In this document: piece by piece, positions 8,937 to 51,208 of the stretch
How positions within the stretch are numbered: position 1 is the first letter of the stretch
Layout of the letters: every line of letters begins with the position of its first letter
Source of the DNA: Verrucomicrobiota bacterium
GTDB taxonomy: Bacteria; Verrucomicrobiota; Verrucomicrobiia; Limisphaerales; UBA11358
Reading direction: 5' to 3'
DNA: 52,442 bases
Assembly: GCA_049521735.1 (NCBI GenBank)
Contig: JBEKON010000003.1
Location: 1 to 52,442, forward strand
Made by a program: the position numbers and the translations under genes
Notes under the pieces: model-generated
Databases searched by the model: none
Seen by the model: only the letters and a program-made list of their open reading frames with translations
What the model was told of the DNA's origin: nothing

Positions 8937-8999
8937 GTGATTTGTGAATGGCGAAGGCGCGCACAATTCACTATTCACCATTCACGATTCACGATTTAA
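8937..8999. repeat. Inverted heptamer arrays between divergent polX and thiD
   Basis: GTGATTT GTGAATG GCGAAGG facing AATTCAC TATTCAC CATTCAC GATTCAC GATTTAA. Confidence 0.8.
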
Positions 9000-9006
9000 T
9001 TGCGCC

Positions 9007-9801
9007 ATGCCGAAGCGGAAACAATTACCCGTCGCGCTGACCATCGCCGGCTCGGATAGTGGCGGCGGCGCGGGCATTCAGGCCGACTTGAAAACGTTCG
9101 CCGCGCTTGGCGTGCATGGCGCAAGCGTCATCACTTGTGTGACCGCGCAAAATCCAAATCGCGTTCGCAATATCGAATCGTGCTCACCCAAAATCGTGCG
9201 GCAACAAATCGAAACCGTGTTTGAAGAATTGCGACCGGGGGCGGTGAAAACCGGCATGCTGTTTTCTGCTGAAATTGTCCGTGTTGTCGCCAGTTTTTTC
9301 AAAAAAAGGGATCGCCTGCCGCTCATTATTGATCCGGTGATGATTTCAACCAGCGGCGCAATGTTGCTGAAGCCGGCGGCAATTAAACTTTTGAGGGAAC
9401 ACCTGCTGCCACTTGCTGCGCTGGTCACGCCCAATTTGCACGAGGCCGGAATTTTGACCGGACGTAAAATGACATCCATCGAAAATATGCGCGCCGCCGC
9501 CCGTGAGATTCACGCGCATTTTGGATGCGCGGCGCTGGTGAAGGGCGGTCATTTGCGTGGAGGGTGTGAGGCGGTGGACATTTTTTTTGATGGCCGGACG
9601 GAATTGCTGTTAACCGCGCCATTTGTGAAAAGAGTCCACCCGCACGGCACCGGTTGTGTGTATTCAGCGGCTATCACGGCGGAGCTTGCGTTGGGGCATG
9701 ATTTGTCTGATGCGGTAAAACTTGCCAAACACTACGTCACTCACGCCATCGCGCGAAGCTATCGCATCGGGCAACATTTTGCGCTCGGACATTTTGCTTG
9801 A
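9007..9801 (+). CDS. thiD: Hydroxymethylpyrimidine/phosphomethylpyrimidine kinase
   Basis: ALTIAGSDSGGGAGIQADLKT, VKTGML, DPVM, TPN, KGGH, HGTGC; ATG 9007 preferred. Confidence 0.96.
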   Translation: MPKRKQLPVALTIAGSDSGGGAGIQADLKTFAALGVHGASVITCVTAQNPNRVRNIESCSPKIVRQQIETVFEELRPGAVKTGMLFSAEIVRVVASFFKKRDRLPLIIDPVMISTSGAMLLKPAAIKLLREHLLPLAALVTPNLHEAGILTGRKMTSIENMRAAAREIHAHFGCAALVKGGHLRGGCEAVDIFFDGRTELLLTAPFVKRVHPHGTGCVYSAAITAELALGHDLSDAVKLAKHYVTHAIARSYRIGQHFALGHFA

Positions 9802-9814
9802 GCGCGCGAAATTT

Positions 9815-11383
9815 TCACGGTCGCTGCAGCCGGAAAAACTGGCTGCCATTCGTCGCGCCGAGCGTGACGCAATTTTGACTATTGGTCACGGTGGGAGCCG
9901 GGTTGTTTGTATTCCAAACCGGCGCAGCCAGATTGGTGGCGGCTTGGAGCACGAAGCCCGCCGGATAAATCGGCCATGTGAGAACTATATTGGTGCCGGA
10001 GCTGGCGATGTTCAACGGCGTCGAGAAAAATTCAAACGCGAGCGCGTAGGTTTCATTGGTGCTGACGATGCCGAACCCGCCGGCTTTCCAGACCTGCAAA
10101 TCATAACGGCCTTGCGCCAGATGCGGCACCCAGATGTGTTCGACGTTGTCCACCAGGCTCGCGCTGCGGGCGATCAGGTTGCTGGAAATCGTGTCGTATA
10201 AAAACAGGTCAAGGTTGTTGATGTTGGTGCAATTCCGGTGGCGATTCCAAACGAGCGTGATGGTGGCGGTAAAAGTGGCGCTGTTCACACCATTGGTGAC
10301 GTTGAAATAATAATGGTTCACCCCGTCGGACGAGGAACTGCTGGTGTTGGTGTTGAAATCCCAGCCGCTCAACACACTGACCGTTCCGGTGGCGCCGGTC
10401 GGTGGATGCGGGCTGTTGGTGAAAACACTCATTGAAACGATGTAACCATGCTTGCCGCCGGTGAGCTGCTCGTAGGAGTTGAAAACGTTTAATACGCCCG
10501 CGCCGTAGCGTGTGTCCAGCGGCGAAGGCGCGTTGTTTGTCCAATCAGCGGGCTTGATGGCGCCGTTCAGCAACAGTGCCTTTACCGTGCGGATGTCGGC
10601 GGCGGAGTTCGTGTCGCTGCCGCCGTCGCCGCGCAATCCCGCCTGCATCAGCACCGCCGCCGCGCCCGCAACCTGCGGCGTGGAAAAGCTTGTGACGCCT
10701 GCCGGGGCGGTGATGTCCGGTTTGGCGCGGCCATTGTCGATCGTCGGCCCGAAACTCGAACTGCCGCCGTAAGCGCCGACGCCGATGCCGTTGTAGCACG
10801 TTGCCGGCGCACACACCGGCCCGCCGTTGTTGGCGGCGGAGACAAGAAGCATGTGGTTTTGCACGGCATAATTGTCGTATTGCGAATCAACCATTTGCTG
10901 GTCTGAAACCGTGAGCGAGCCAAAAGTGAAACTTTGGTTGACCACCGAATCGCCGCTGTCCGACAACAATGAATTTGCAACATAATTCGTGTAAAAGAAT
11001 TCAGCGTCGTAATTGTCCACGTGCGCCACATTGGTCGCCACGCCACCAGACAATCCATAAAAATATCCGCCCACCCCGTCGGCATGGCCGGATTCGTTGC
11101 CCACGGAGTTTGGAAATGTGTTGGTCGTGCCAGCGGCGGAAATGTAAGTGAACCAGCTTGCCGGCTGGTTTACCGGGGTGGGATTGACTTCAAAGGCGCT
11201 CGGATGATTGGTATTGCTGTCTGCATTAGCTTCGGGCTGCGCCACGCGAATGCCCGAGCCATTGACGTTGGTCGTCACCGCCCACAACAGCGTAACGCCG
11301 ATGGTGTCGAGATTCTGTGCGCGGGCAGCCATTTGCCCCAGGAAAACGAAGGCCAGGAGGAATTGTGCGCCGCGCAATTTCAT
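9815..11383 (-). CDS. Secreted S8 (subtilase) serine protease-like protein
   Basis: Signal peptide, SGHADGV (His), SAANN, GRAKPDITAP, TSFSTPQVAG (Ser), YGAG. Confidence 0.82.
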   Translation of the reverse strand: MKLRGAQFLLAFVFLGQMAARAQNLDTIGVTLLWAVTTNVNGSGIRVAQPEANADSNTNHPSAFEVNPTPVNQPASWFTYISAAGTTNTFPNSVGNESGHADGVGGYFYGLSGGVATNVAHVDNYDAEFFYTNYVANSLLSDSGDSVVNQSFTFGSLTVSDQQMVDSQYDNYAVQNHMLLVSAANNGGPVCAPATCYNGIGVGAYGGSSSFGPTIDNGRAKPDITAPAGVTSFSTPQVAGAAAVLMQAGLRGDGGSDTNSAADIRTVKALLLNGAIKPADWTNNAPSPLDTRYGAGVLNVFNSYEQLTGGKHGYIVSMSVFTNSPHPPTGATGTVSVLSGWDFNTNTSSSSSDGVNHYYFNVTNGVNSATFTATITLVWNRHRNCTNINNLDLFLYDTISSNLIARSASLVDNVEHIWVPHLAQGRYDLQVWKAGGFGIVSTNETYALAFEFFSTPLNIASSGTNIVLTWPIYPAGFVLQAATNLAAPVWNTNNPAPTVTNSQNCVTLGATNGSQFFRLQRP

Positions 11384-11536
11384 GAGATTTTCATTTTTTG
11401 CCGCAAATTTTACGCCCCAATTCCAACCTCACATTTGAAGTTTGAGGTGATTGCGGATTCTTAGAATATAGCCGCGAATCGCACCAAAGCAAATCACAGC
11501 CATTTCCTTTTAACGCTGGAGCGCTACACTGCCAGC

Positions 11537-12280
11537 GTGTCCGACACGCTGGTTGTCAACGAAATCTATTTGAGCTTGCAAGGGGAAAGCACCTTCGCCG
11601 GGCTGCCGTGCGTTTTTATCCGGCTCACCGCCTGCGATTTGCGCTGCTCGTATTGCGACACCGCCTACGCCTTCACCGAAGGCAGAAAAATGTCGCTCGA
11701 CGAAATCCGAATGAAAGTTCGAGAGTTGGCGGCTCCGTTTTTAAATTCAAAACTCAAAACTCAAAATCCAAAACAACCACTAGTCGAGCTGACCGGCGGC
11801 GAACCGTTGCTCCAGAAAAATTCCCTGCCGTTGATGAAGCGGCTTTGCGACGATGGGTTCATCGTTCTCCTCGAAACCGGCGGTGCGCATGACATTTCTC
11901 AAGTGGACGCCCGGGTTCGCCGAATTATGGATTTGAAATGTCCCAGCAGCGGCGAAGTTGAGCGCAGTCGTCTTGAGAACATTCCACGCCTCAAGGCCAC
12001 CGATGAAATCAAATTCGTCATTGGCACGCAGCAGGATTACAATTGGGCAAAACAAAAAATTTCCGAGCACAAGCTCAACACCATTTGCCCGTTGTTAATT
12101 TCGTGGGTGCAGCCGCTCGCGCCAGAGCAGCAGGATAAATCGCTAAAAAAAGTTCCATTGGGGCAGAAGCCCATTTCACGCCAACAACTTGCGGAAAAAA
12201 TCATTGCCGACGCGCTGCCGGTTCGATTCCAAGTTCAAATGCACAAAGTAATTTGGCCGCCGGAGCAACGTGGTGTTTGA
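11537..12280 (+). CDS. queE: 7-carboxy-7-deazaguanine synthase (radical SAM)
   Basis: EIYLSLQGES, CDLRCSYCDT (CX3CX2C), TGGEPL, ETGG, QMHKVIW. Confidence 0.9.
   Translation: MSDTLVVNEIYLSLQGESTFAGLPCVFIRLTACDLRCSYCDTAYAFTEGRKMSLDEIRMKVRELAAPFLNSKLKTQNPKQPLVELTGGEPLLQKNSLPLMKRLCDDGFIVLLETGGAHDISQVDARVRRIMDLKCPSSGEVERSRLENIPRLKATDEIKFVIGTQQDYNWAKQKISEHKLNTICPLLISWVQPLAPEQQDKSLKKVPLGQKPISRQQLAEKIIADALPVRFQVQMHKVIWPPEQRGV
11744..11773 (+). repeat. In-frame heptamer array inside queE
   Basis: AATTCAA AACTCAA AACTCAA AATCCAA; encodes NSKLKTQNPK. Confidence 0.8.
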
Positions 12281-12285
12281 TTCTG

Positions 12286-13629
12286 ATGAAGACGAAACAA
12301 ATTCTCGACCTGTTGCGCGCCTACGAGTCCCGCAACATTGTGTTCATGGAGCCGGACGGCTCCTGGCCCATCATTTGGGAACGCGCCAAAGATGTTTACG
12401 TTTGGGACGCTGACGGGAAAAAATATCTCGATTTGTCCGGGGCATTTGGCGTTGCCGCTGCCGGCCACGCGAACCGGCGCGTCGTCAAGGCCGGTCAAAA
12501 ACAAATGGCGCGGTTACTCCACGCGATGGGCGACGTGCATCCGCATGCAGGTAAAGCCGGACTCGCGCGCGAGTTGAGCCGCATCACGTTCGAACATTGG
12601 GCCAGTTTTCGGAGGGACGAGCTCCGCGAGTCCCCAACATCAGGGCATCGTGGAACTCCGCCCTCCGGAAAGGTCATTTTCAGCAATTCCGGCTTCGAGG
12701 CCGTCGAATCCGCGCTCAAAACCGCGATTCTCGCCACGGGCAAACAGGGCGTCATTGCGTTCACCGGCGCGTATCACGGACTCGGCTACGGCGCGCTCAA
12801 CGCGACGCACCGCGATTTTTTCCGCGGCCCGTTCCAATCGCAACTTCGCGAGTTCGGGCATTTCGTCCAGTTTCCGTCAAAAGCCAGCGACCTTGCCTCC
12901 GTGGAGTTCAGCATCCGCCACTTTTTTCGGCGTGAACGCATTGGCGCGATTCTGGTCGAACCGGTCCAAGCTCGCGGTGGCATCAATGTTCCGCCAAAAG
13001 AATTTTTGCCGCTGCTTCGAAAACTTTGCGACGAACACGGCGTATTGCTGGTTCTCGATGAAATTTACACCGGCTTTGGCCGCACCGGAAAATGGTTCGC
13101 GTGTGAACACAACGGCGTGGTTCCCGATTTGATTTGCCTCGGCAAGGCGCTTACCGGCGGCTTTCCGCTCTCGGTGTGCGTCGGTCGCGCCGACCTTATG
13201 GATGCCGCATGGCCGGCTTCGCGCGGCGAGGCGATTCACACCAGCACATTTCTCGGCCATCCTGTTGGTTGCGCAATGGCGTTGGCGCAAATCAAGGAAA
13301 TCGAGCGACTCAACCTTTGCAAACGAAGCGCGGAACTCGGAGAATTTCTTTTGGCGGAGTTGTCTAAAATCCAAAGTCTAAAATCCAAAGTTGTTTGCAA
13401 ATCACGCGGTTTGGGTCTGATGGCCGGCATTGAATTGCGATTGCCCGACGGCAAACCTGCCACCGAAGCCACAATGCGGGCCATCAAAAACATGTTGCAT
13501 CGTGGCTTCATTCTTTTGCCCGAAGGCGGGCATGGCAACGTCATCAGCTTCACACCGCCGCTTACTATTGCCAAGGCGCAACTGTCAAAGGCCGTCAGCA
13601 CGCTCGCGGAGGTTTTGAACCACGAATGA
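12286..13629 (+). CDS. Class III PLP-dependent aminotransferase
   Basis: [44 protein letters not shown] (PLP Lys), RGLGLM. Confidence 0.93.
12607..12670. repeat. Imperfect palindromic element in frame within the aminotransferase
   Basis: Left arm TTTCGGAGGGACGAGCTCCGCGAGTCCC; reverse complement of right arm TTCCGGAGGGCGGAGTTCCACGATGCCC. Confidence 0.8.
13361..13391 (+). repeat. In-frame heptamer array inside the aminotransferase
   Basis: TGTCTAA AATCCAA AGTCTAA AATCCAA AGT; encodes [10 protein letters not shown]. Confidence 0.75.
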
Positions 13630-13768
13630 ACACGGATAAACACGAATTTTCAGGCTGGTGGGGCGAGCGTCCCCGCGAGCCGTTCTTGGTGTGGAACCAT
13701 TTGGCTCATCAAGTAACCCCGCCCCACCTTTGCGTTTCATCTGTGTGCATCCGTGTTTATCCGTGGTT
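13618..13768. repeat. Nested element: inverted decamer arrays enclosing a GGTGGGGCG...CGCCCCACC palindrome
   Basis: AACCACGAATGAACACGGATAAACACGAAT on the left, ATCTGTGTGCATCCGTGTTTATCCGTGGTT on the right; inner IR at 13657-13665 and 13720-13728. Confidence 0.88.
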
Positions 13769-13770
13769 AA

Positions 13771-14628
13771 ATGTTCCCAGTGAAACTTTCTGAAATGCGG
13801 GAACTCTTGACGACGAGAGGGATTCAACTGACAAAATCCCTCGGCCAGAATTTTCTACACGACGGCAATCAACTTCGGCGCATCATTGAGGCGGCGGAAT
13901 TAAAAAAGACGGACAAAGTCCTTGAAATCGGGCCGGGACTTGGGCCGCTCACCGAATTGCTTTTGGAAAGAGCGGGTGAGGTTTTGGCCATCGAAAAGGA
14001 CGCCAGGCTCGTGGAATTTTTACGCGAGCGGTTTTCCAATCCGCAATCCGCAATTCGCAATTCGCAATTTGAACTGCTTCACGACGATGCGCTGGAATTT
14101 CTGAAACGCGAGCAAAGGGATTGGAGCGATTGGAAGCTCGTGGCCAATCTGCCGTATTCCGTCGCTTCGCCGATTCTCGTCGAACTGGCGCAATCGCCCA
14201 AACGACCGGAGCGGATGGTCGCAACGTTGCAACTCGAAGTCGCGCGGCGGCTTGCGGCCAAAGCCGGTGATGCGGATTACGGCGTGTTTACGTTGCTGAT
14301 TCAACTCGACTATGAATCCCGAAAGCCTTCGGGATTCAAGATTCCGGCAAGTTGCTTTTTTCCGGAACCGGACGTGGATTCGGCATGCGTGGTTTTGATT
14401 CGCCGCGCCACGCCGCTTTTGCCCGAAAGCCAGCGTGCGGCGTTTGTGAAAATTGTGAAGCGGGCGTTTTCGCAGCGGCGTAAAATGATGCTGAAACTGC
14501 TGCGCGAAGACTGGCTGGCGGAGAAATTGGAGCGGGCGTTTGAAGACTTACAGCGTTCGTCACAAGTGCGAGCGGAAGCGGTGGGCTTGGAACAATTTAT
14601 TGAGTTAACTCAAATATTGGCGGAGTAG
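13771..14628 (+). CDS. rsmA: 16S rRNA dimethyladenosine transferase
   Basis: KSLGQNFL, EIGPGLG, IEKD, VANLPY, F.P.PDVDS, FSQRRK. Confidence 0.96.
   Translation: MFPVKLSEMRELLTTRGIQLTKSLGQNFLHDGNQLRRIIEAAELKKTDKVLEIGPGLGPLTELLLERAGEVLAIEKDARLVEFLRERFSNPQSAIRNSQFELLHDDALEFLKREQRDWSDWKLVANLPYSVASPILVELAQSPKRPERMVATLQLEVARRLAAKAGDADYGVFTLLIQLDYESRKPSGFKIPASCFFPEPDVDSACVVLIRRATPLLPESQRAAFVKIVKRAFSQRRKMMLKLLREDWLAEKLERAFEDLQRSSQVRAEAVGLEQFIELTQILAE
14034..14068 (+). repeat. In-frame heptamer array inside rsmA
   Basis: TTCCAAT CCGCAAT CCGCAAT TCGCAAT TCGCAAT; encodes SNPQSAIRNSQ. Confidence 0.85.
14313..14338. repeat. Perfect 11-bp stem hairpin inside rsmA
   Basis: TGAATCCCGAA-AGCC-TTCGGGATTCA; partial related copy CGAAGGCTTCGGGATT at 49896-49911. 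Confidence 0.7.
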
Positions 14629-14644
14629 TTTTTATCCAAAAATC

Positions 14645-14702
14645 GGGAGGATCGGCATATTGCCGGCCAAAATTTCAGGGACGGCGGCACGCTGTCCCTC
14701 CC
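14645..14702. repeat. Degenerate REP-like doublet between rsmA and the NUDIX gene
   Basis: GGGAGG...CCTCCC ends with internal hairpins CGGCA-TAT-TGCCG and GGGACGGCG..CGCTGTCCC. Confidence 0.55.
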
Positions 14703-14714
14703 ATGTGTTGAATC

Positions 14715-15242
14715 ATGAGCGAAGAAATTTTTGATGTCGTTAACGAGCGCGACGAGGTGATTGACCACCAGCCGCGCAGTGAAGTGCACCGGCTGGGCTT
14801 GAAGCATCGTGCGATTCATGTGCTGGTCTTTAATTCGCGCGGCGAGACTTTTCTCCAAAAACGCTCGATGAAAAAAGACCGGGAAGCTGGCAAATGGGAT
14901 TCATCGGCATCCGGTCACGTGGGTTCCGGTGAGGATTATGATGCCTGTGCGGTGCGCGAATTGCGTGAGGAAATTGATCTGAAAATTGCGCGGCCACCGC
15001 AACGATTATTCAAAATCGCCGCGTGCAAGGAAACGGACGCAGAATTCGTCTGGGTTTATCACTGTGAAGCCGAAGGGCCGTTTCAGTTGCATCCTGACGA
15101 AATTGAACGTGGCGGTTGGTTCGCGCCGGGAAAAGTCACGCACTGGATCGCTGAAAAACCGGAGGAATTCGCCAGTGCATTCGTTTTGATTTGGGAATTA
15201 TATCTCACGCAAAATCGCAAAGGCGCGAAGACGCCAAGCTAA
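14715..15242 (+). CDS. NUDIX hydrolase (Idi/YfcD-like)
   Basis: [37 protein letters not shown] Nudix box. Confidence 0.88.
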
Positions 15243-15269
15243 AATCTTTCTTTGCGGGCTTTGCGTGAG
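15204..15269. repeat. Inverted octamer-type array overlapping the NUDIX stop codon
   Basis: CTCACGCAAA / TTTGCGTGAG perfect 10-bp IR; units CGCAAAAT CGCAAAGG CGCGAAGA CGCCAAGC. Confidence 0.75.
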
Positions 15270-15997
15270 GTTGCGCCTTTACTTGTGCCGAAAATGGAGT
15301 AGTTATTCAGTCATGCAAAATTTCCTGGTTCCAATTGTGGTCGAGCAGACCAGTCGCGGCGAGCGGACGTGGGACATCTACTCGCGCCTGCTTGTGGACC
15401 GCATCATTTTTCTCGGCACAGCCGTGGATGACACAGTCTCAAACATCGTCATCGCACAACTGCTTTTTCTCCAGATGTCCGACGCGAAGAAGGATATTCA
15501 TCTCTACATCAATTCGCCGGGCGGCAGCGTCACGGCCGGGCTGGCGATTTACGACACGATGCAATATCTCACGTGCGACGTGAACACTTATTGCGTCGGG
15601 CAGGCCTCAAGCATGGCTGCCGTGCTGCTCGCGGCGGGCACGAAGGGCAAGCGCTACGCGCTGCCGAACGCGCGCATCCTGATTCATCAACCGTGGGGCG
15701 GCGTGCAGGGTCAGGCCTCAGACATCAGCATTCAGGCCAAGGAAATTCTGCGGCTCAAAGACCGGCTGAATGAAATTCTTGCCAAACATTGCGGGCGCAA
15801 GGTCGAGGAACTCACGCGCGACACCGACCGCGACCGTTTCATGTCCGCCGTGGAAGCGAAAGAATACGGCCTCGTGGATCAAGTTGTGCAATCGCGCAAG
15901 GAAATCGCGGGACTAACTGAAAAAACTTCCGTGGCGGTTTGACGACAAGAGAATTATTCTGCGCAAACAGTGTCAGGAAGCAGCGTGAGGTTGCGCC
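15263..15997. repeat. 15-bp exact direct repeat GCGTGAGGTTGCGCC flanking clpP
   Basis: Copies at 15263-15277 and 15983-15997. Confidence 0.85.
15313..15942 (+). CDS. clpP: ATP-dependent Clp protease proteolytic subunit
   Basis: [26 protein letters not shown] (Ser), IHQP (His), DRDRFMSA. Confidence 0.97.
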
Positions 15998-16020
15998 ATT
16001 TCGTTTAGTTTCTATACAGC

Positions 16021-17322: not shown

Positions 17323-17357
17323 GCACGGAGTGAAACACTTTCTTTATACGACGGCAA

Positions 17358-17438: not shown

Positions 17439-18416
17439 TTAGCGCGCGAAAATCTGGCGGATCACGTCTTCAATCGGCACTTCCTGAATGTCAATGTCGC
17501 TCACCGGCAAATCGTCGAGCAGCGATTTACAGACGGCGATAACACGGTCGCGTTTCACCTTGAACGTGATGGAACCGACGTTTTTCTCCATGACTTCGCC
17601 GTAACGCGCCAGATTTTCCGCCGGATAATCGTTCGCCTTTTCGCATTGAATCGTTACAACCTTGAAGTCGGCGAAGCGATCCACGATTTCGCTCAATTTA
17701 CCATCGAAGAAAATCTTGCCGTGGTCAATGATGATGACACGCTCGCAGAGCGCCTGGATGTCAGCCATGTAATGGCTCGTAAGCAGGATCGTCGTCTTTT
17801 GCCCGGCGTTGTGGTGGCGGATGAATTCGCGGACGATCTTTTGCGAAACCACGTCGAGGCCGATGGTCGGCTCGTCGAGGAACAGAACCTTGGGCTGGTG
17901 GAGAAGCGAGGCGATCAGCTCCATTTTCATGCGTTCGCCAAGCGAAAGCTCACGAACGCTGATGTTGAGTTTGTCGCGGATGTTGAGCATTTCGCTCATT
18001 TCGGCGACGGTGCGCTCGAAGCGGTCGGCGGGAATGCCGTAAATTTTTGAGTTCAGTTCAAGCGATTCACGGGCGGGCAAGTCCCACCAAAGCTGGTTTT
18101 TCTGGCCGAGCACGAGTGCGAACTGGCGGCGGTAGCCGTCGTGGCGCTCCCACGGAACATAGCCGAGCACGAGCGCCGAACCGGCTGTCGGGTAAAGCAG
18201 ACCGGCGAGCATCTTGAGCGTGGTGGTCTTGCCCGCGCCGTTCGGGCCGAGAAAACCGACGAGTTCACCGGGTTCAATCGTAAAATGCACGTCGTTGACT
18301 GCAACGGTTTGTTCGTATCGACGGTGAAACAATCCCTTGATCGCGCCCGCAAAGCCGGGTTGCTTTTTGTAGGTGCGAAAGGTCTTGGTGAGACCGCTGA
18401 CTTCAATAACAGGCAT
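17439..18416 (-). CDS. ABC transporter ATP-binding protein (ABC-2 type)
   Basis: GPNGAGKTT, LSLGE, FLDEPTIGLD, TSH. Confidence 0.93.
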   Translation of the reverse strand: MPVIEVSGLTKTFRTYKKQPGFAGAIKGLFHRRYEQTVAVNDVHFTIEPGELVGFLGPNGAGKTTTLKMLAGLLYPTAGSALVLGYVPWERHDGYRRQFALVLGQKNQLWWDLPARESLELNSKIYGIPADRFERTVAEMSEMLNIRDKLNISVRELSLGERMKMELIASLLHQPKVLFLDEPTIGLDVVSQKIVREFIRHHNAGQKTTILLTSHYMADIQALCERVIIIDHGKIFFDGKLSEIVDRFADFKVVTIQCEKANDYPAENLARYGEVMEKNVGSITFKVKRDRVIAVCKSLLDDLPVSDIDIQEVPIEDVIRQIFAR

Positions 18417-20798: not shown

Positions 20799-23747
20799 AT
20801 GGACTATAAAAACACATTGAATTTGCCGCACACTGATTTCCCGATGAGGGCCGATTTGGTGGCGCGCGAGCCTGACCGGTTGAAAAAATGGGAGACGGCG
20901 AGGCTTTACGAAAAAATCCAGGCTGACCACGCCAATGTGAAGGAAAAGTTTGTTCTGCACGACGGTCCGCCGTTCGCCAACGGCGACGTGCACATCGGCA
21001 CGGCACTGAACAAGATTCTCAAGGACATTATCGTTAAATACAAAACCCTGCGTGGGTTCAACGCGCCCTACATTCCGGGCTGGGATTGCCATGGATTGCC
21101 CATCGAATTCAAGGTTTCACAGGAGATGCGGAAAGGCCAGAAGTCAGAAGTCGGAAGTCAGAAGTTGGATTCTGATCGATTTTCGGCGTCCGCGATTCGC
21201 AAAGCTTGCGAAGTTTACGCCCGCAAGTTCATTGACATCCAGCGAACGCAATTCAAGCGTCTCGGCGTCTTTGGTGATTGGAACAATCCCTATCTCACGC
21301 TGAACAAGGAATATGAGGCTGACGAGTTGCGTCTGTTCGCCGACATCGTAGAAAAGGGTTTTGTCTATCGCGGCAAAAAGCCGGTCTATTGGAGCATTCC
21401 CTGTCGCACGGCGCTCGCTGAAGCCGAAGTTGAATATCAAGATCACGTCAGCCCCAGCATCTACGTGAAGTTTCCCATCGTCGGCCAGCCGAACACGTTT
21501 GTGCTGATCTGGACGACGACACCATGGACTTTGCTGGCGAATCTCGCCGTCGCTTACAACGACAAATTTCAATACGTCCAGGTCGAAGTCGGCGGTGAAA
21601 AATACATTTTATTCCGGGGGCTGCTGGCCGCCGTCGCGGAAAAATGCGGCTGGAGCGGTTATACCGAAACGTCGTTCGCAACCGAAAAACTTGCTGCGCT
21701 GCAGTTTCAGCATCCGTTCTGTAATCGCACTGGCAGGTTTTATCCCGCTGACTTTGTTGCCAGCGACACCGGCACCGGCTTCGTCCATATCGCGCCCGGC
21801 CACGGCTTGGAGGACTATCAACTCGGCTTGTCTGTCGGTCTGCCAATTTACTCGCCTGTGGATGATGATGGCAAGTTCATGCACACGAACGATTTACCTA
21901 TCGAGCAACAAATGCCCGCCGAGATGGTCGGGAAATCCATCCTCGAAAAACATGGCAAGAGTGAAGCGAATGAAGCGGTGCTGCATGAACTGCGCATTCG
22001 CAAGGCGCTGTTGCACCAGGAAGATTATAACCACAGCTATCCGCATTGCTGGCGCAGCAAGACGCCCATCATCTTCCGCGCGATGGATCAGTGGTTCATC
22101 GAGATTGACCATGAGAAATTCCGTGACCGTGCTCTGGCAGAAATTGACCGCGTCAAATGGGTGCCGGACTGGTGCATCAATCGCATCAAAAGCTTGGTGC
22201 AAACCCGTCCCGACTGGTGCATCTCGCGCCAACGCACTTGGGGCGTGCCGATTCCGGCGTTTTACGCCGCGAAAGGAAATCCGATTCTCGACGCGCAAAT
22301 CGTCCGTAACACCGCAAATTTGATTGAAAAGCATGGTTCAAATGTCTGGTTCGAAAAATCCGCTGCAGAACTTTGGTCACTGGTAAAACCGAAGAATTGG
22401 AAAGGCGCTACCCCCACCGCCAAATCCAACGACACGCTCGACGTGTGGATTGATTCGGGAAGTTCGTCGCGAAGTGTGCTGATGCGGCGGGCGGAATTGC
22501 ATCACAGCGTAGGACAGGCTTCCAGCCTGTCTCCATCTAAAAAGGAATTAGAGACAGGCAAGATGCCTGTCCTACAATGGCAAGCCGACGTTTACCTCGA
22601 AGGCTCCGACCAGCATCGCGGCTGGTTTCAATCGTCGCTGTTGCTGTCGCTTGCTGGCAACGGGGCCGCACCGTACAAGACCGTGCTGACCCACGGGTTC
22701 ATGGTGGATGCCGACCGCGAAAAAATTTCCAAGAGCAAACAAAGCCAGGGCGGCTACGAAAAACCGCAGACTGCCGAGGCTTACGTGAAAAAACACGGCG
22801 CGGATATTGTGCGTCTGTGGGTTTCGTCGCAGGATTTCCGCAACGACATCATCGTGAGCGAGGAACGCGTCAACAAGATCGCGGAAACCTACCGCGTTAT
22901 TCGCAACGCGCTGCGTTACCAACTTTCGAACCTTTACGATTTCGATCCGGCGAAACACACCGTTGCCGATGACAAGCTCACCGGCCTTGACCGCTGGATT
23001 TTAGCCAGATTCTCCTTGCTCGAACAACAGGTGTTCGGAGCATGGAAAACTTTCGAAGAAGCAATAGTCTCAAAGAAACAAGGGCACTATGACCTTTACG
23101 AATTTCACGCCGTTTATCAATGGATGAGTCAATTCATAGCCGTTGAATTGTCCTCTATCTATCACGACATCATTAAAGATCGCCTCTACACCGACCCGGC
23201 CAATTCGCATCGCCGGCGCTCGACGCAAACCGCGTTATACCGGCTCGTGACCGGCCTGTGCCAAATGCTCTCGCCGATTCTGGCTTTCACCACGGATGAG
23301 GCGTGGGAATTGATTCCTGGAAAGGTTGGGTCAGTCCATGAAACGGCTTGGCAACCAATGGGGCTGATCCGTCCAAGCGAGGAGGCAACTTTTTGGGGAG
23401 AAATGTTTGCTCTTCGAGATATTCTGCTGCTCAAGCTAGAAGAGAAGCGAAAAGGGAAGGTAATTGGTAAATCGCTTGAAGCAAAGATCCATTGGTTTCC
23501 CGAACGAGCCAAAAAACTTTCAGATTTGGTTTCAGATGGAAAGATACTCGAAGAGTTTCGTGAGTTGGTAAATGTTTCACAATTTGAGATTACGAATGAC
23601 CCGAAAGCAGAACTCGTTGTCCATGCCGACGGTAAGAAATGCGAGCGCTGCTGGCATTGGGAAACGGATGTTGGTTCGCACAAGGAGCATCCGACGATTT
23701 GCGGTCGTTGCATTGCTGCAGTGAAGGAATTTCAGGCCGGGCGATAG
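20799..23747 (+). CDS. ileS: Isoleucine--tRNA ligase (type 1)
   Basis: LHDGPPFANG, PGWDCHGLPIE, WTTTPWT, DWCISRQR.WG, EGSDQHRGWF, C-terminal CERC...CGRC zinc finger. Confidence 0.98.
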   Translation: MDYKNTLNLPHTDFPMRADLVAREPDRLKKWETARLYEKIQADHANVKEKFVLHDGPPFANGDVHIGTALNKILKDIIVKYKTLRGFNAPYIPGWDCHGLPIEFKVSQEMRKGQKSEVGSQKLDSDRFSASAIRKACEVYARKFIDIQRTQFKRLGVFGDWNNPYLTLNKEYEADELRLFADIVEKGFVYRGKKPVYWSIPCRTALAEAEVEYQDHVSPSIYVKFPIVGQPNTFVLIWTTTPWTLLANLAVAYNDKFQYVQVEVGGEKYILFRGLLAAVAEKCGWSGYTETSFATEKLAALQFQHPFCNRTGRFYPADFVASDTGTGFVHIAPGHGLEDYQLGLSVGLPIYSPVDDDGKFMHTNDLPIEQQMPAEMVGKSILEKHGKSEANEAVLHELRIRKALLHQEDYNHSYPHCWRSKTPIIFRAMDQWFIEIDHEKFRDRALAEIDRVKWVPDWCINRIKSLVQTRPDWCISRQRTWGVPIPAFYAAKGNPILDAQIVRNTANLIEKHGSNVWFEKSAAELWSLVKPKNWKGATPTAKSNDTLDVWIDSGSSSRSVLMRRAELHHSVGQASSLSPSKKELETGKMPVLQWQADVYLEGSDQHRGWFQSSLLLSLAGNGAAPYKTVLTHGFMVDADREKISKSKQSQGGYEKPQTAEAYVKKHGADIVRLWVSSQDFRNDIIVSEERVNKIAETYRVIRNALRYQLSNLYDFDPAKHTVADDKLTGLDRWILARFSLLEQQVFGAWKTFEEAIVSKKQGHYDLYEFHAVYQWMSQFIAVELSSIYHDIIKDRLYTDPANSHRRRSTQTALYRLVTGLCQMLSPILAFTTDEAWELIPGKVGSVHETAWQPMGLIRPSEEATFWGEMFALRDILLLKLEEKRKGKVIGKSLEAKIHWFPERAKKLSDLVSDGKILEEFRELVNVSQFEITNDPKAELVVHADGKKCERCWHWETDVGSHKEHPTICGRCIAAVKEFQAGR
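21138..21165 (+). repeat. In-frame heptamer array inside ileS
   Basis: CAGAAGT CAGAAGT CGGAAGT CAGAAGT; encodes QKSEVGSQK. Confidence 0.85.
22509..22575. mobile_element. GTAG-family REP doublet (REPIN-like) in frame within ileS
   Basis: GTAGGACAGGCTTCCAGCCTGTCTC and, inverted, GTAGGACAGGCATCTTGCCTGTCTC, separated by a 17-nt spacer. Confidence 0.85.
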
Positions 23748-41342: not shown

Positions 41343-41450
41343 AACCGCAAAGACGCCAAGGCGCAGAGCAAAGTTTCAAATAAGGAAGGCAGGAATCGTG
41401 GAAATTTCGGTTCCTGCTTTCTTGCTTTCCTTATTAAATCCTTGGCGTCT
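41343..41450. repeat. Nested inverted repeats between convergent asd and exbD; probable bidirectional terminator
   Basis: AGACGCCAAGG / CCTTGGCGTCT perfect outer IR; inner AATAAGGAAGGCAGGAA / TTCCTGCTTTCTTGCTTTCCTTATT. Confidence 0.78.
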
Positions 41451-43453: not shown

Positions 43454-43585
43454 GCCACCAAGATAGCCCCAGAAAAACGAGGTGGGCAACTTCTTTACCG
43501 GCATTGGGAGTGACAGTTCCCCCTGTTGTTTCGAAATTCTGCATTGCAATTTTGCCTGATACTGGCAGCTTCACCAGTTCGGCGT

Positions 43586-43662: not shown

Positions 43663-43670
43663 CTTTTTCA

Positions 43671-43700
43671 AATTTCGGATTTTCGATTGTGGATTGAGGA
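43671..43700 (+). repeat. Degenerate heptamer array between tRNA-Pro and trmB
   Basis: AATTTCG GATTTTC GATTGTG GATTGAG. Confidence 0.55.
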
Positions 43701-44312: not shown

Positions 44313-44376
44313 TTTTTAGTCAAAGCGGCCAACGGCGGCTTGCCAAAACTAAAAACTCAGAATTAAAAACTTAAAA
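44290..44376. repeat. Inverted heptamer arrays between convergent genes; includes the trmB stop
   Basis: AATTTCG AATTTTT AGTTCTT AATTTTT AGT facing ACT AAAAACT CAGAATT AAAAACT TAAAA. Confidence 0.8.
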
Positions 44377-44383
44377 CCGCATT

Positions 44384-44836: not shown

Positions 44837-44944
44837 GGTTTTCGTTGAAAATCAGCGCTCCGCAAAATGCGCCAGCTTGCGCGGAAAAACAAGTGGCAAA
44901 CTCTGAAAAGAGCCGAACCAGAACCTGGATTATTCTTCGGCGCG

Positions 44945-45076
44945 GTGAAAAAGAAATGGAGTCGCTGGATGGTGGCGGTTTTTCTGGCGCTCTTCGCATT
45001 AAGCCGCTGGCCGGGATTGTTTCCACTGGATTTCAGTCCGGTTTATGCTCTGGCAGTTGAATGGGAGCATCGGTAA
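44945..45076 (+). pseudogene. Probable truncated 5' remnant of a membrane protein gene
   Basis: VKKKWSRWMVAVFLALFALSRWPGLFPLDFSPVYALA reads as a TM-R.P....NF-type start (DUF6580-like, from memory) and breaks off where the next gene begins. Confidence 0.45.
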
Positions 45077-47652: not shown

Positions 47653-47713
47653 CGGTAATACCGGCAGTCATTTCAGGTTTTAGGAAAAGCAGACTAAAAG
47701 CTCGTGGCTACTT

Positions 47714-49858
47714 CTATCTGAATTTCCCCGACTTGCGATAACTTGCAGGTTTTGTTTCCCCGGTTGACGAGGTATCGCCAATCATGCGTTTGAGTTCCTT
47801 GATCTGGTCGCGGAGCAGGGCGGCTTTCTCGAATTTCAAATCGTTTGCGGCAGTGAGCATTTCCGTTTCGAGTTCGCTGATGGTTTCGGTCAGGTCCACG
47901 TCCATGCCGGCGTCTTTGAGAACCGATGCGCCTGCTTCGCGCTTTGATTCGTAAGTGGCAAGGCTTTCTTCAACGGCGCGGCTGACACTGCGCGGCGTAA
48001 TATGGTGTTCCTTGTTGTAGGCAATTTGCTTTTGGCGGCGATATTCGGTGACGGCAAGAAATCGTTTGATGCTGTTGGTCATCACGTCGGCGTAGAGGAT
48101 CACTTCGCCGTTGAGATGGCGCGCGGCGCGGCCCGCGGTCTGAATCAGGCTCGTTTCGCTGCGCAGGAAACCTTCCTTGTCCGCGTCGAGAATCGCGACG
48201 AGCGAGACTTCCGGCAAATCGAGTCCCTCGCGCAACAAATTGATGCCGACGAGCACGTCAAACTCGCCCTTGCGCAACGCGCGCAAAATCTCGACGCGCT
48301 CGATGGCGTCAATCTCACTGTGGAGGTAGCGCACGTTCACGCCGATGTTGCGAAGATAATCGGTCAGTTCCTCGGAGGTGCGCTTGGTGAGCGTGGTGAC
48401 GAGCACGCGCTCCTTCGTGTCGGCGCGCTTGCGGCATTCCTCAATGAGATCGTCAATCTGGCCTTTGAGCGGTTTGAGCGTGACCTTTGGGTCAATAAGG
48501 CCGGTCGGTCGAACGACGAGTTCCACGACGCCGGGTTGTCCACCAACTCCCTCTCCTCCGCGAAGTGGAGGAGAGGGCTGGGGCGAGGAGGTGCTTTTGT
48601 TGAGCTGCCCCTCTCCCCGCTCCTGCGTCGCGGGGCGAGGGAGAATAAAACTTTGCCGCGACCATTCCAATTCCCGTGCTGCCGGGGTCGCACTGGCGTA
48701 AATCGTCTGGTCTTGCATCGCCTGGAATTCCAGAAAGTTCAACGGCCGATTATCCAGCGCGCTCGGCAGACGGAACCCGTAATCCACCAGCACCGTTTTG
48801 CGCGAGCGGTCGCCCTCGAACATCCCGCCGATTTGCGGCACGGTGGCGTGCGATTCGTCAATCACCAGCAGGTAATCGTCCGGGAAAAAATCAATGACGG
48901 TCGCCGGACGCGAGCCGGGCGGGCGGCCGGCGATGTGCCGGGAATAATTCTCGATGCCGGAACAAACGCCCATTTCCTCCATCATTTCGAGGTCGTATTC
49001 GGTCCGCTGCTTGATGCGCTGGGCCTCGAGCAGTTTGCCGTGTTTCTCGAACCACGCGATGCGCTCGCCGAGTTCCTCGCGGATGGTGAGGATGGCGCGC
49101 TTCAGTTTGTCGCTGGTGGTGACGAATTGTTTTCCTGGAAAAATGGTGACCGCGTCGAGCGATTCGATTTTATTTCCTGTGAGCGGCTCGAACCGCGTGA
49201 GGCGCTCGATTTGCTCGCCGAAAAATTCAATGCGCAGCGCGTCTTCGCGACCGGCAGGATGGATTTCCACCGTGTCGCCGCGCACGCGGAAATTGCCGCG
49301 CTCAAACGCGATGTCGTTCCGGTCGTATTGCAAATCCACCAGGCGCGCGAGGAATTGCTCGCGCGAAATTTCCTGCCCGACGCGAATGGGAATGATCATC
49401 GCCTCGTAATCCTCCTTGCTGCCGATGCCGTAGATGCACGACACGCTGGCGACGACAATCACATCGCGCCGCGAAAACAGCGAACTCATGGTCGAGAGCC
49501 GCATCCGCTCGATTTCCTCGTTCCGGCTGGAATCCTTTTCGATGAATGTGTCAGTGCGTGGGATGTAGGCTTCCGGCTGGTAATAATCAAAATAGCTGAC
49601 GAAATATTCGACGGCGTTGTTGGGAAAAAAACTTTTAAACTCGGCGTAAAGCTGCGCGGCGAGCGTCTTGTTGTGCGAGATGACCAGCGTCGGCTTGTCC
49701 ACGTTTTTGATGACATTGGCGATGGTGAACGTTTTGCCGGAACCGGTGACGCCGAGCAGCGTTTGATGCCGTGCACCGGACAAAATGCCGTCGGTCAGCT
49801 TCGTAATCGCCTGCGGCTGGTCACCGGCCGGTTGATAGGGCGCTACAAGTTCGAACAT
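47714..49858 (-). CDS. uvrB: Excinuclease ABC subunit B
   Basis: GVTGSGKT, YFVSYFDYYQPEAY, DESH, SATP, RPTGL, REGLD, QTAGRAAR, C-terminal UVR domain. Confidence 0.99.
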   Translation of the reverse strand: MFELVAPYQPAGDQPQAITKLTDGILSGARHQTLLGVTGSGKTFTIANVIKNVDKPTLVISHNKTLAAQLYAEFKSFFPNNAVEYFVSYFDYYQPEAYIPRTDTFIEKDSSRNEEIERMRLSTMSSLFSRRDVIVVASVSCIYGIGSKEDYEAMIIPIRVGQEISREQFLARLVDLQYDRNDIAFERGNFRVRGDTVEIHPAGREDALRIEFFGEQIERLTRFEPLTGNKIESLDAVTIFPGKQFVTTSDKLKRAILTIREELGERIAWFEKHGKLLEAQRIKQRTEYDLEMMEEMGVCSGIENYSRHIAGRPPGSRPATVIDFFPDDYLLVIDESHATVPQIGGMFEGDRSRKTVLVDYGFRLPSALDNRPLNFLEFQAMQDQTIYASATPAARELEWSRQSFILPRPATQERGEGQLNKSTSSPQPSPPLRGGEGVGGQPGVVELVVRPTGLIDPKVTLKPLKGQIDDLIEECRKRADTKERVLVTTLTKRTSEELTDYLRNIGVNVRYLHSEIDAIERVEILRALRKGEFDVLVGINLLREGLDLPEVSLVAILDADKEGFLRSETSLIQTAGRAARHLNGEVILYADVMTNSIKRFLAVTEYRRQKQIAYNKEHHITPRSVSRAVEESLATYESKREAGASVLKDAGMDVDLTETISELETEMLTAANDLKFEKAALLRDQIKELKRMIGDTSSTGETKPASYRKSGKFR
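48547..48643. mobile_element. CCCTCTCC double-hairpin element in frame within uvrB
   Basis: CCCTCTCCTCC / GGAGGAGAGGG (perfect 11 bp) and CCCTCTCCCCGC / GCGGGGCGAGGG (11 of 12). Confidence 0.82.
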
Positions 49859-49866
49859 GCCCTGCG

Positions 49867-49895
49867 AAAGTAGGAGCGGGATTGCCGGGTGTCAA
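49867..49895 (-). promoter_or_regulatory. Sigma70-type promoter of uvrB (near-leaderless)
   Basis: TTGACA, 17 nt spacer, TACTTT on the minus strand, 8 nt before the ATG. Confidence 0.65.
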
Positions 49896-49953
49896 CGAAG
49901 GCTTCGGGATTGAAACGTTCGGGGATTTCCGTAAGCTCCGATGCCAAGCAACC

Positions 49954-50829
49954 GTGAAAACATTTTTTGCCTCGGCCATTTTGCTTTTGTCGCCGGTTTT
50001 GTCCCACACTGAAATGCAGACTCCCATTCCACTCTGGCCCGGCGGCGCACCCGGCGCGCTCGGCAAAACCACCAACGATATTCCCACGCTCACGCCGTAT
50101 CTGCCCCAGCCGGCAAAAGCGACGGGCGCGGCCATGGTGATTTGTCCGGGCGGCGCCTATCAAATCCTCGCGCCGCATGAGGGAGAGGATTATGCGCTCT
50201 GGCTGAATAAGCACGGCGTGGCTTGTTTCGTGTTGAAATATCGCCTTGGCTCAAATGGCTACCGCCATCCGGCGATGCTGCAGGATGCCGCGCGCGCGGT
50301 GCGGCTGGTCCGGGCGAGGGCGGCGGACTGGAAAATTGACGTGAAACGCGTCGGCATCATGGGTTCATCAGCGGGAGGGCATCTGGCGTCCACGTTGATG
50401 ACGCATTTTGATTCCGGCAACACGAACTCAAATGACCCGATTGAACGGCAAAGCTCGCGGCCGGACATCGGCATTTTGTGCTACCCGGTTATTACAATGG
50501 GCGAATATACCCATCGGACTTCAAAGAAAAATCTGATCGGCAAACATCCGTCACGGAAGCTGGTCAAGTTGCTTTCCAGCGAACTGCAAGTGACGACCAA
50601 TACGCCGCCATGTTTCATTTGGACGACGTTTGAAGACGAGAGCGTTCCCATGGAGAACAGCCTGATGTTTGCCGAGGCGCTGCGAAAGGCTGGCGTGCCG
50701 TTCGATCTACATATTTACGAAAATGGCAAACACGGCATGGGCTTAGGCGACAAACCGCCGTTCACGCATCCGCATCAGTGGGCCGGCGATTGTTTGTTCT
50801 GGCTGAAAGCGCAGAATTTCGTGAAATAA
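49954..50829 (+). CDS. Secreted alpha/beta hydrolase (carbohydrate esterase-like)
   Basis: PLWPGGAPG, CPGGAY, GSSAGG, ED.SV, HGMG. Confidence 0.88.
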   Translation: MKTFFASAILLLSPVLSHTEMQTPIPLWPGGAPGALGKTTNDIPTLTPYLPQPAKATGAAMVICPGGAYQILAPHEGEDYALWLNKHGVACFVLKYRLGSNGYRHPAMLQDAARAVRLVRARAADWKIDVKRVGIMGSSAGGHLASTLMTHFDSGNTNSNDPIERQSSRPDIGILCYPVITMGEYTHRTSKKNLIGKHPSRKLVKLLSSELQVTTNTPPCFIWTTFEDESVPMENSLMFAEALRKAGVPFDLHIYENGKHGMGLGDKPPFTHPHQWAGDCLFWLKAQNFVK

Positions 50830-50831
50830 TT

Positions 50832-50858
50832 CACCACAAAGACACGAAGGCACAAAGG
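50832..50858 (+). repeat. Octamer array after the hydrolase stop
   Basis: CACAAAGA CACGAAGG CACAAAGG; resembles the units at 15204 and 41343. Confidence 0.6.
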
Positions 50859-51148
50859 AAACGGAATTATTCTCGACAAAAGTGGCTGTCAAGAAATCGC
50901 GTCTGACTTGTGGGGAAAATCAGACTACCTATCCGCACGGGCGTTAAAAAATCTTGCAATTCCGGGCGTTTCCCTTATTCTCTGTTTTGCCTGAACGCCG
51001 CGTGTGTGGATGTTCATTGAGGCTGAGAAAAAATAGTTAAACCAACAACCTAACAGTCAACCTCCGTTGCCGTTAGCAGCGATCTCGCCTCGGCGAAGCG
51101 TTCGCGAAGACGGGTGGTAGTTAGGCAATGGAGCTTCGGTCCGGTTAT

Positions 51149-51208
51149 TTTGGAGTGCGCGGACGCGTCCGCGCTTTTAAAGCGGCGACATGTCGCCGCA
51201 GTCCATAA
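51149..51208. repeat. TGGA-ended REP-like doublet upstream of rpsA
   Basis: Two perfect 18-bp palindromes GCGCGGACGCGTCCGCGC (51157-51174) and GCGGCGACATGTCGCCGC (51182-51199) inside TTTGGAGT...AGTCCATAA. Confidence 0.8.

Follow-up and report, generated by a model that had tools for sequence, protein, structure and literature searches.

How genes for core enzymes can hold short repeats and still be read through is the question raised by a 52,442-base stretch of bacterial DNA (the window), which is the whole of contig C3 of a 2.08-Mb, 79-contig assembly that is 92% complete (G000). About 20 short repeat elements, multicopy in the genome, lie in this window, and eight of them are in frame within genes: queE, an aminotransferase gene (two), rsmA, ileS (two), aguA, and uvrB. 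The favored answer, with a probability of about 0.7, is that the genome has been colonized by several small-repeat systems, each with a gene-bearing form elsewhere and many gene-less copies. The first system would comprise repetitive extragenic palindromic (REP) sequences in seven versions, as GTAG- or GGAG-tagged hairpins that are single or paired as inverted doublets (REPINs), each version with its own REP-associated tyrosine transposase (RAYT). The second would consist of arrays of four or five heptamers, which as inverted pairs flank genes of the four-helix-bundle family PF05635 or form intergenic gene-less hairpins, and as single arrays sit inside genes. In the putative third and fourth systems, CCCTCTCC nested hairpins lie beside DUF559 genes and arrays of 8- to 10-mers beside GxxExxY genes.

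The repeats in the window were located with Tandem Repeats Finder (TRF), a repeat finder, a hairpin scan, and a genome-wide 14-mer count, which marked the same places as multicopy. NCBIfam profiles identified the genes concerned as queE, aminotransferase, rsmA, ileS, aguA, uvrB, esterase, rpsA, and thiD, and codon-level views showed the reading frame to be open through every in-frame insert. QueE has 237 residues, against 205 matched profile positions in NCBIfam. An earlier note, made from the letters of the window, had also counted about 20 elements, and it had placed about nine inside open reading frames (ORFs); eight of these stand, and the one that does not is a second element in rsmA; of the two further elements linked to this gene, one adjoins the start codon and one lies past the stop codon. 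Three elements were said to supply last codons or a stop: the case in the aminotransferase gene is clear, that of the esterase, whose TAA directly adjoins the 8-mer array at position 50830, is plausible, and a third was not found in the window. A "TGGA doublet" could not be found there either. Profile searches gave no match on contig C3 to Y1 transposases, PF05635, DUF559, or PF13366, in agreement with the earlier view that no mobilizing gene is present in the window, and Rfam identified only a tRNA there and no family for any repeat element. Relative to shuffled sequences, the hairpin elements fold as single-stranded DNA (ssDNA) at z = -3.5 to -7.9, and a heptamer array does not (z = +0.74).

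Across the genome, a hairpin with a stem of at least 7 bp follows 228 of the 1,303 GTAGG sites (17.5%). The rate for control pentamers was 0.8 to 2.5% in 13 of 14; the fourteenth, GGTAG, overlaps the same elements. The GTAG hairpins form 152 clusters, 76 of which are inverted doublets, 72 with their GTAG ends outward. Going by a crude codon-usage gene caller (1,661 genes, 86% coding), 75 clusters fall within predicted genes and 63 in intergenic DNA, with the remaining 14 at the edges of genes. An extragenic location, considered normal for REPs in the earlier note, is therefore not the rule in this genome, and in family A, the family of the GTAG doublet in ileS, 20 of 24 doublets are intragenic. 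All 20 of these in-gene doublets have the A-rich spacer on the sense strand, and they use the three reading frames 14, 6, and 0 times; in the unused frame, the TAG of GTAG would be read as a codon. At the flanks of family A, AAC is frequent on the 5' side only, and inverted termini are present. At least one REP or heptamer insert was found in 119 of the 1,661 predicted genes (~7%).

Seven RAYT-like genes (NCBIfam NF047646) and one IS200-like gene were identified in the genome. Scores for NF047646 reach the 80-bit cut-off on contigs C34 (87.1/85.3), C8 (82.6), C1 (82.1), and C14 (80.3 with neighbors) and lie below it on C15 (78.6), C13 (73.1), and C29 (67.3). The HVH and Y-x-x-x-NP motifs are present in the RAYTs of C34, C8, and C29, and the C34 protein matches TnpArep (PDB 4er8_A; E = 3.8e-7). 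All seven genes have a distinct REP type, GTAG or GGAG tagged, on both sides within ~250 nt, which accords with the proposal of RAYTs as candidate mobilizers encoded outside the window. Four of these pairings are mirrored in the window: the RAYT of C34 is flanked by GTAGGGACG, the type of the aguA insert; that of C15 by GGAGGGACGAG, seen as the aminotransferase element formerly described as a GGAGGG palindrome; that of C14 by GGGAGGGACGGC, seen as the pair after the rsmA stop codon; and that of C29 by the family A sequence GTAGGACAGGC, seen in the ileS insert. The GTAGGGCG types flanking the RAYTs of C1 and C13 and the GTAGCACCCGCG type flanking that of C8 were not seen in the window. The GGAG tag variant flanks the RAYTs on C14 and C15, and no RAYT partner was found in the genome for GTGG-tagged hairpins. 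Because each cognate RAYT is flanked by a matching hairpin type, several of the five or more types that had been listed as unrelated resolve into REP/REPIN families: the GTAG doublets and the GGAGGG palindrome are one kind with a RAYT partner, and the GGTGGGG palindrome (GTGG tag) is probably also a REP. The presence of multiple families in the window was nonetheless upheld.

Heptamers form the second system. The genome contains 121 period-7 arrays of at least three units, compared with 8 arrays of period 8 and 3 of period 9, and 94 of the 121 lie inside predicted genes. Arrays are 21 to 39 nt long (in-gene median, 30 nt), the in-gene sense strand is composed of A (36%), C (32%), T (21%), and G (11%), and S, N, K, Q, and P are abundant in the encoded peptides. 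AATCCGC, AAAACTC, and AAAGTCC account for 11 arrays each, and heptamer units also recur in other species. The idea that REPINs insert into heptamer arrays was dropped, as no REP was found within 30 nt of any array in G000.

The four PF05635 genes of G000 (56 to 124 bits; cut-off, 33.8) all lie between mutually reverse-complementary period-7 arrays, so the four-helix-bundle proteins suggested as candidates in the earlier note fit in 4/4 cases. When flanks were scored as complementary if an inverted repeat of at least 17/20 joined them, 24 of 32 PF05635 genes from 13 genomes of the order qualified, and none of 60 mismatched pairs did; outside this order but within the phylum, the figures were 18 of 28 and 1 of 60. 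Arrays inside genes are single, with an inverted partner in 2 of 81, and intergenic or edge arrays have such a partner in 6 of 27 (at 16/18) or 12 of 27 (at 15/18). An earlier scan for inverted array pairs 150 to 2,000 nt apart returned 10 pairs, of which only the four-helix-bundle pair on C8 was clean. The PF05635 copy on C12 lies between a protein-coding (tyrA-like) gene and aroA, and the C8 copy lies between protein ORFs.

The two remaining candidates proposed in the earlier note also have repeats nearby. Both DUF559 genes of the genome have CCCTCTCC-like hairpins alongside, three of the four GxxExxY genes have TTAAC-type 8-mer arrays alongside, and the fourth has another 8-mer. Arrays of the CACAAAGA/CACGAAGG type, found in the window after the esterase gene, flank GxxExxY genes, and 8-mers of the TTCCTGCT type also occur 3' of a GxxExxY gene on C18.

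Aligning host proteins to orthologs and counting each family genome-wide had been put forward as checks. For six hosts of the window, the comparison with orthologs covered both sides of the insert. Empty alleles were found for every host compared, the repeats are multicopy, and the elements were also seen in contigs from other sequencing runs, all of which supports the claim that several non-autonomous families add loops to housekeeping enzymes. In what follows, G001 to G024 are sampled genomes of the same genus, and further G numbers are relatives. The only ileS found in G000 is the insert-bearing copy. It was aligned with orthologs using 24 of 30 loci (L016 and L020, an antisense ORF, and L019, L022, L027, and L030, without an 850-amino-acid [aa] ORF, were left out); none of the 23 other orthologs has its heptamer insert or its 15-residue single-copy insert, and only G022 shares its GTAG doublet, at the same codon. 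Near residue 438 of IleS, at least five kinds of insert occur in 9 of the 24 orthologs, with none in G000. For uvrB, with 10 of 80 loci aligned, the insertion point is empty in 7 of 10, and the composite that a 75%-identical relative carries there differs from that of G000 and is longer. The uvrB of that relative (L044) is a 766-aa ORF with an insert motif ending in QSLLTSAAT, and motifs with this ending are also found in ileS inserts of other relatives.

The same loops hold different elements in related species. The rsmA loop, compared in 30 species, is empty in 11. Five species have clear heptamer arrays there (three units), three have CCCTCTCC elements, and another three have other hairpins; family A doublets and GGAG pairs occupy the loop in two species each, and four species carry short or degenerate inserts. 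In an AlphaFold2 model of RsmA with a mean predicted local distance difference test (pLDDT) score of 90.8, the insert connects helix 78-89 to strand 100-104 as a coil and is the block of lowest pLDDT (68); it is thus modeled as a surface loop. Among 29 species, the aguA loop is minimal in 3 and short in 11 and holds clear heptamer arrays in 7 (six units), degenerate heptamers in 5, and REPIN-like hairpins in 3, one of them in a 44%-identical homolog. In G005, an AAAGCGG array is found both in aguA and flanking a PF05635 gene. The queE loop contains CGAACTC in G022 and CAATTCG in G011, and aminotransferase orthologs have heptamers at the position of the REP pair. A comparable turnover is evident in the spacer between tyrA and aroA, which in six species holds a PF05635 gene with heptamer ends (G000), an inverted heptamer hairpin without a gene (G022), an 8-mer hairpin (G014), or 10-mer hairpins with nested elements (G023, G011, and G017). 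Matches to aroA itself were split in G014, G011, and G017 (L257 to L259), with ORFs of 481 to 563 aa compared with ~435 aa in G000; since the matches are split and the frames longer, the sequences suggest further internal inserts in aroA of these relatives.

Two of the seven RAYTs lie in frame within larger genes, encoding PriA and a DinG-like helicase. In PriA (C8:42099-45074; L032/L124), a complete HUH-Y1 domain is located between the 3'-DNA-binding domain and the helicase core and is bracketed by its own GTAGCACCCGCG hairpins. The in-frame RAYT of the DinG-like helicase (C29:2-2953; L033) is bracketed by family A REPINs, and G017 has a similar DinG-like protein with a RAYT (L157). Among 41 genomes, PriA with a RAYT was found in G000, G017, G014, and apparently G036; G011 has only two REP arms at this position, and most of the others are empty there. 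Between-species omega (the ratio of nonsynonymous to synonymous substitution rates) was 0.09 and 0.085 for the embedded RAYT, compared with 0.14 and 0.105 for the rest of PriA, and the HUH histidines (H300 and H302) and the tyrosine (Y368) are invariant in 39 PriA-embedded RAYTs. Judged by these substitution patterns, the embedded RAYT is under purifying selection. A RAYT of the PriA type is contained in 920 longer database proteins, the best 120 of which are nearly all PriA of ~950 to 1,000 residues, with a few methionine synthases; MetH database matches with a RAYT are ~1,650 aa. In relatives (G011, G017, G020, G026, G036, and G039), a Pfam scan of 8 of the 9 long ORFs with in-frame RAYTs (L154 to L162; L161 was left out for its size) identified alanyl-tRNA synthetase (AlaRS), ClpB, a type IIG restriction-modification enzyme, and a UDPGP-domain protein as hosts. 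A PDB sequence search with the PriA-embedded RAYT returned no match at an E value of ≤0.01, and a structure model of PriA with its RAYT from a 39-sequence alignment was poor (mean pLDDT, 45.1; predicted template modeling score, 0.25) and was not used. According to the available part of a survey of Y1 proteins, unexpectedly long proteins were discarded there as fusions or annotation errors (PMC6006769).

A mechanism that could link these features begins with the RAYT, which would cut and rejoin single-stranded hairpin DNA and thereby copy REPINs. Copies arriving in genes would survive only in a tolerant surface loop, in the sense orientation, in a non-TAG frame, and at a length that is a multiple of three, and those that survive would be translated as hydrophilic loops of 7 to 45 residues. 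Different elements would reuse the same loop in related species because few loops tolerate inserts. What the sequences display directly are the repeats with their copy numbers, their reading frames, the empty alleles, and the pairings of genes with repeats; mobility, translation, and the way in which single heptamer arrays come about are inferred.

Other explanations were weighed against this colonization by mobile repeats. The heptamer arrays could be simple-sequence repeats generated in place by replication slippage in weakly constrained loops, in which case they would not be mobile and their link to PF05635 would be incidental. The shortness of the arrays would fit this, as would the way they often blend into the native sequence on their 3' side (as with CAATTTG-AA of rsmA) and the resemblance of the G005 aguA array AAAGCGG to the flanking GCGGAAAC; heptamer repeats preferring about four units have also been reported in Xanthomonas and Nostoc, going by the available part of that study (PMC4692102). 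Local slippage alone nevertheless fits poorly, because a few identical units recur at many unrelated loci and in other species, and it is considered unlikely: a one-unit slip in a gene would break the frame, the complementarity of PF05635 flanks is far above the control, and the very unit seen in G005 aguA also surrounds a PF05635 gene. Somewhat less probable still is that the inserts are kept for a host function, as stem-loops for mRNA stability or processing or as flexible linkers, and are not tolerated selfish DNA. Occupation of the same loops and of the tyrA-aroA spacer in most species examined, the strict sense orientation of family A, and the effects on mRNA stability and termination reported for REPs (in the available part of PMC3733652) speak for such a role. 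Set against it are the variation of the occupant between close species, the empty or minimal state of the rsmA and aguA loops in 11/30 and 3/29 species, the lack of conservation of the insert peptides, and the failure of single in-gene heptamer arrays to fold; the orientation and frame biases are also expected from purifying selection against stops and hydrophobic peptides.

Removal of the inserts before the protein is made, by an intron-like process acting on RNA or an intein-like one acting on protein, would mean that no new loops arise. This idea, which rests only on the presence in essential genes of elements that form strong hairpins, is very improbable. RNA excision would leave frame, stops, and orientation free, yet the frames are distributed 14/6/0 and the orientation 20/20, a bias that is expected if selection acts on a translated insert and that speaks against excision from RNA. 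Searches also gave no intein or intron family: Pfam recognized only helicase and Y1_Tnp domains in PriA and the DinG-like protein and Rfam only the tRNA. Least probable of all, at a few chances in a hundred or below, is that the inserts are artifacts of metagenome assembly or binning. Assembly graphs do break at these repeats, and contigs from public runs end inside the ileS REPIN, where depth is 10 to 30 times higher. However, runs of three studies yielded contigs with exact matches to the ileS inserts and their junctions; these contigs extend from unique parts of ileS into the elements and across them, and one contig of run X1 spans the heptamer insert. Misassembly is therefore not the explanation. 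The presence of the element at the same ileS codon in another species, G022, and the open frames through every insert point the same way.

Several observations weigh against colonization by mobile systems or limit its reach. The pairings of DUF559 (2 genes) and GxxExxY (4 genes) with repeats are few cases without a control. Assignment of a repeat to the inside of a gene depends on the crude codon-usage gene caller, and 13 of the 94 in-gene heptamer arrays are so near the beginning of the ORF (within its first 5%) that they may precede the true start. For the commonest single heptamer units of the genome, AATCCGC, AAAGTCC, and AACTCTC/AACCCTC, no flank-matched PF05635 gene was found in G000, which is 92% complete; PF05635 genes with such flanks occur in relatives only. 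We know of no mechanism that turns an inverted array pair into a single array. The REP and heptamer systems display no visible mutual targeting, given that no two of their elements are within 30 nt of each other. Reuse of sites could come from interspecies recombination, or from targeting of sites already occupied, instead of repeated insertion into the few tolerant ones. The public-run contigs, which drop rare variants, contained no indels; neither transposition events nor excision products came to light, nor did an empty site that was polymorphic, and one RNA run (X24) gave only short pieces with 2 to 10 differences.

Similar elements are known from other bacteria. Short tandemly repeated repetitive (STRR) sequences and small dispersed repeats of cyanobacteria are tandem heptamer arrays of about four units that are scattered through the genome. 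The intervening sequences in 23S rRNA genes, as in Leptospira, carry a PF05635 ORF within inverted repeats that form a long stem. The PF05635 copies described here share with them the small four-helix-bundle ORF within inverted repeats; they differ in that the copies examined (C12 and C8) lie between protein-coding genes and not in 23S rRNA, and in that the inverted repeats are heptamer arrays whose unit varies from copy to copy. In contrast to inteins, neither PriA nor the DinG-like protein has a Hint or splicing domain in Pfam at the ends of the RAYT insert.

Comparisons with published systems draw on the available portions of the papers cited. Intragenic GTAG REPs were reported in 2013, most numerous in Opitutus terrae (Di Nocera, De Gregorio, and Rocco; PMC3733652), in ORFs for excinuclease subunits, repair genes, helicases, and tRNA synthetases, where they contribute 20 to 30 residues. 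The same report describes multiple REP families per genome with repeat-specific RAYT units ("REPtron") and GTGG tag variants. The central phenomenon, translated REPs inside verrucomicrobial genes, was therefore already known, and the elements of G000 resemble those of Opitutus in being GTAG hairpins, single or dimeric, within ORFs of a verrucomicrobial genome that has several families with RAYTs. As far as the available part of that report goes, G000 is different in the almost entirely intragenic distribution of family A (20/24 doublets), the RAYT genes in frame in host genes, the heptamers sharing the same loops, and the turnover of single loops across 29 to 30 species. Compared with the REPIN-RAYT systems of Pseudomonas and enterobacteria (Bertels and Rainey, 2011; PMC3116915), inverted doublets, a RAYT flanked by cognate repeats, and tens of copies are shared; those REPINs are described as extragenic, whereas about half of the clusters here lie in predicted genes, and here seven RAYT-like genes occur in a 2-Mb assembly. 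Rickettsia palindromic elements (RPEs), as summarized in PMC3733652, are likewise palindromic repeats in frame in genes that stay functional, and RPE-4 and RPE-6 are classed there with CGTC repeats, for which that report found no dedicated transposase; the elements of G000 differ in sequence, phylum, and the presence of cognate RAYTs. Rickettsia had been called the best-known precedent for in-frame insertion; it is not the sole one, because in-frame GTAG REPs of Opitutus terrae are already in print (PMC3733652). With the heptamers of Xanthomonas and Nostoc (Rehm et al., 2015; PMC4692102), those of G000 share dispersal, tandem arrangement, and about four units. In the available text, the former are G rich, mostly intergenic, and underrepresented in coding sequence; in G000, 94/121 arrays are in genes, the sense strand is AC rich, and arrays pair around PF05635 genes.

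To the extent that the literature was searched, three features are additions to what has been published: the pairing of heptamers with PF05635, the turnover within single loops, and the in-frame RAYTs in PriA and other core proteins. Reports tying PF05635 genes to heptamer arrays or placing a RAYT inside PriA were not found in a search that did not extend to subscription journals, and the supplements of PMC3733652 may list cases. More tentatively, these features might together mark an undescribed class of mobile element in Verrucomicrobia whose ends are inverted short tandem arrays, alongside RAYTs that have become internal domains of host proteins. The array-ended class may comprise heptamers around PF05635 genes and 8- to 10-mers around GxxExxY nucleases, and hairpins in operon spacers and single translated arrays in protein loops may be its gene-less derivatives. 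The RAYTs that reside within PriA, and in relatives within AlaRS, ClpB, MetH, and a DinG-like helicase, may be kept by purifying selection. If this wider proposal is true, the PF05635 family and bacterial heptamer repeats would have a common explanation, and, since the RAYT would be kept in PriA by purifying selection, the copying of REPINs would fall to a replication-restart helicase with a built-in HUH nuclease.

Several questions become testable as a result, among them how far essential enzymes absorb foreign peptide loops, where bacterial heptamer repeats come from, what the widespread PF05635 proteins do, and what RAYTs are for, the PriA-RAYT being a natural fusion in many Limisphaerales. 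The pairing of PF05635 genes with arrays suggests as hypotheses either binding of the protein to the arrays or cutting of the paired arrays by RNase III. The inserts also account for unusual additional segments and low-complexity peptides met in the annotation of verrucomicrobial proteins.

The nearest relatives of the window's uvrB are in Verrucomicrobiota genomes from metagenomes, and the nearest PriA homologs are labeled Limisphaerales or Verrucomicrobiota at source. The genome is verrucomicrobial, probably of the Limisphaerales, and found in peat metagenomes: eight public runs labeled as peat metagenome contain at least half of the sampled words of the ileS stretch. Of the sampled same-genus genomes, 22/24 are listed at 2.6 to 5.9 Mb, the smaller exceptions being G007 (1.8 Mb; 69% complete) and G002 (2.2 Mb; 89% complete). 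Because G000, at 92% completeness, measures 2.08 Mb and most genomes of the genus are larger, it may be reduced or its repeats may be underassembled.

Repeat elements and related features of the window (positions on contig C3; z, ssDNA folding score)
Position	Strand	Element	Location and coding effect	Support or copies
8962..8998	+	Heptamer array CACNATT, ~5 units	N-terminal ORF extension of thiD, probably untranslated	TRF
11743..11774	+	Heptamer array CAAAACT	In frame in queE; encodes NSKLKTQNPK	TRF, codon view
12607..12667	+	GGAG-tagged REP pair (REPIN-like)	In frame in aminotransferase gene, aa ~119-139	Left arm, 17 genome copies; z = -3.54
13621..13647	+	10-mer array (TRF), CACGAATGAA type	Gives last two codons and TGA stop of aminotransferase gene	
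13655..13732	.	GTGG-tagged palindrome GGTGGGGCGAGCG ... CCCCGCCCCACC	Intergenic	17 genome matches to arm; z = -3.63
13738..13771	+	Inverted copy of 10-mer array (TRF)	Ends with GTGGTTAAATG at rsmA start codon	
14037..14071	+	Heptamer array CAATCCG/CAATTCG	In frame in rsmA; encodes NPQSAIRNSQFE	TRF, codon view
14645..14702	.	GGAG-tagged REPIN	Extragenic, just 3' of rsmA stop	Type flanks RAYT on C14
17359..17434	.	REPIN, GTAGGGTCGCC arm and GTAAGGGACACGCGG arm	Extragenic, 7 nt past stop of minus-strand gene 17439-18416	
20049		8-mer array		TRF
21136..21169	+	Heptamer array CAGAAGT	In frame in ileS, aa ~113-124	TRF, codon view
22509..22575	+	GTAG doublet, family A (GTAGGACAGGC...GCCTGTCCTAC)	In frame in ileS; encodes VGQASSLSPSKKELETGKMPVL	z = -7.85
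23040..23084	+	15-aa insert WKTFEEAIVSKKQGH, no repeat element	ileS	Single copy in genome
27261..27312	-	GTAG doublet, family B (GTAGGGACG type)	In frame in aguA, aa 116-133	
41380..41434	.	Inverted pair of 8-mer arrays, TTCCTGCT type	Intergenic	TRF
44345..44377	.	Heptamer array, AAAACTA type	Intergenic	TRF
48520..48646 (about)	-	Composite of CCCTCTCC/CCCTCGCC nested hairpins	In frame in uvrB; adds ~40-45 aa	z = -4.04
50830..50857	+	8-mer array CACAAAGA/CACGAAGG	Directly after esterase TAA stop	
51157..51199	.	Two 18-nt perfect palindromes	rpsA ATG at center of second	

The array at thiD probably lies 5' of the true start codon at position 9007, as orthologs are without the N-terminal extension: they align from aa 22, and the NCBIfam match begins at aa 26-31. 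The ileS segment WKTFEEAIVSKKQGH indicates that not every insert derives from a repeat family. Arrays ending in GTGGTTAA(A), such as C3:13748-13771, are often found directly 5' of starts, with a predicted start within 60 nt at 14 of 45 octamer sites in G000, and may have a 5' leader role. Inverted repeats of 26 nt (85% complementary), 486 nt apart at positions 5085-5622, enclose a 123-aa ORF (5202-5573) that has a low coding score and no Pfam family; this arrangement may represent a further small element. The palindrome at the rpsA start (51182-51199; GCGGCGACATGTCGCCGC) has about five copies in the genome.

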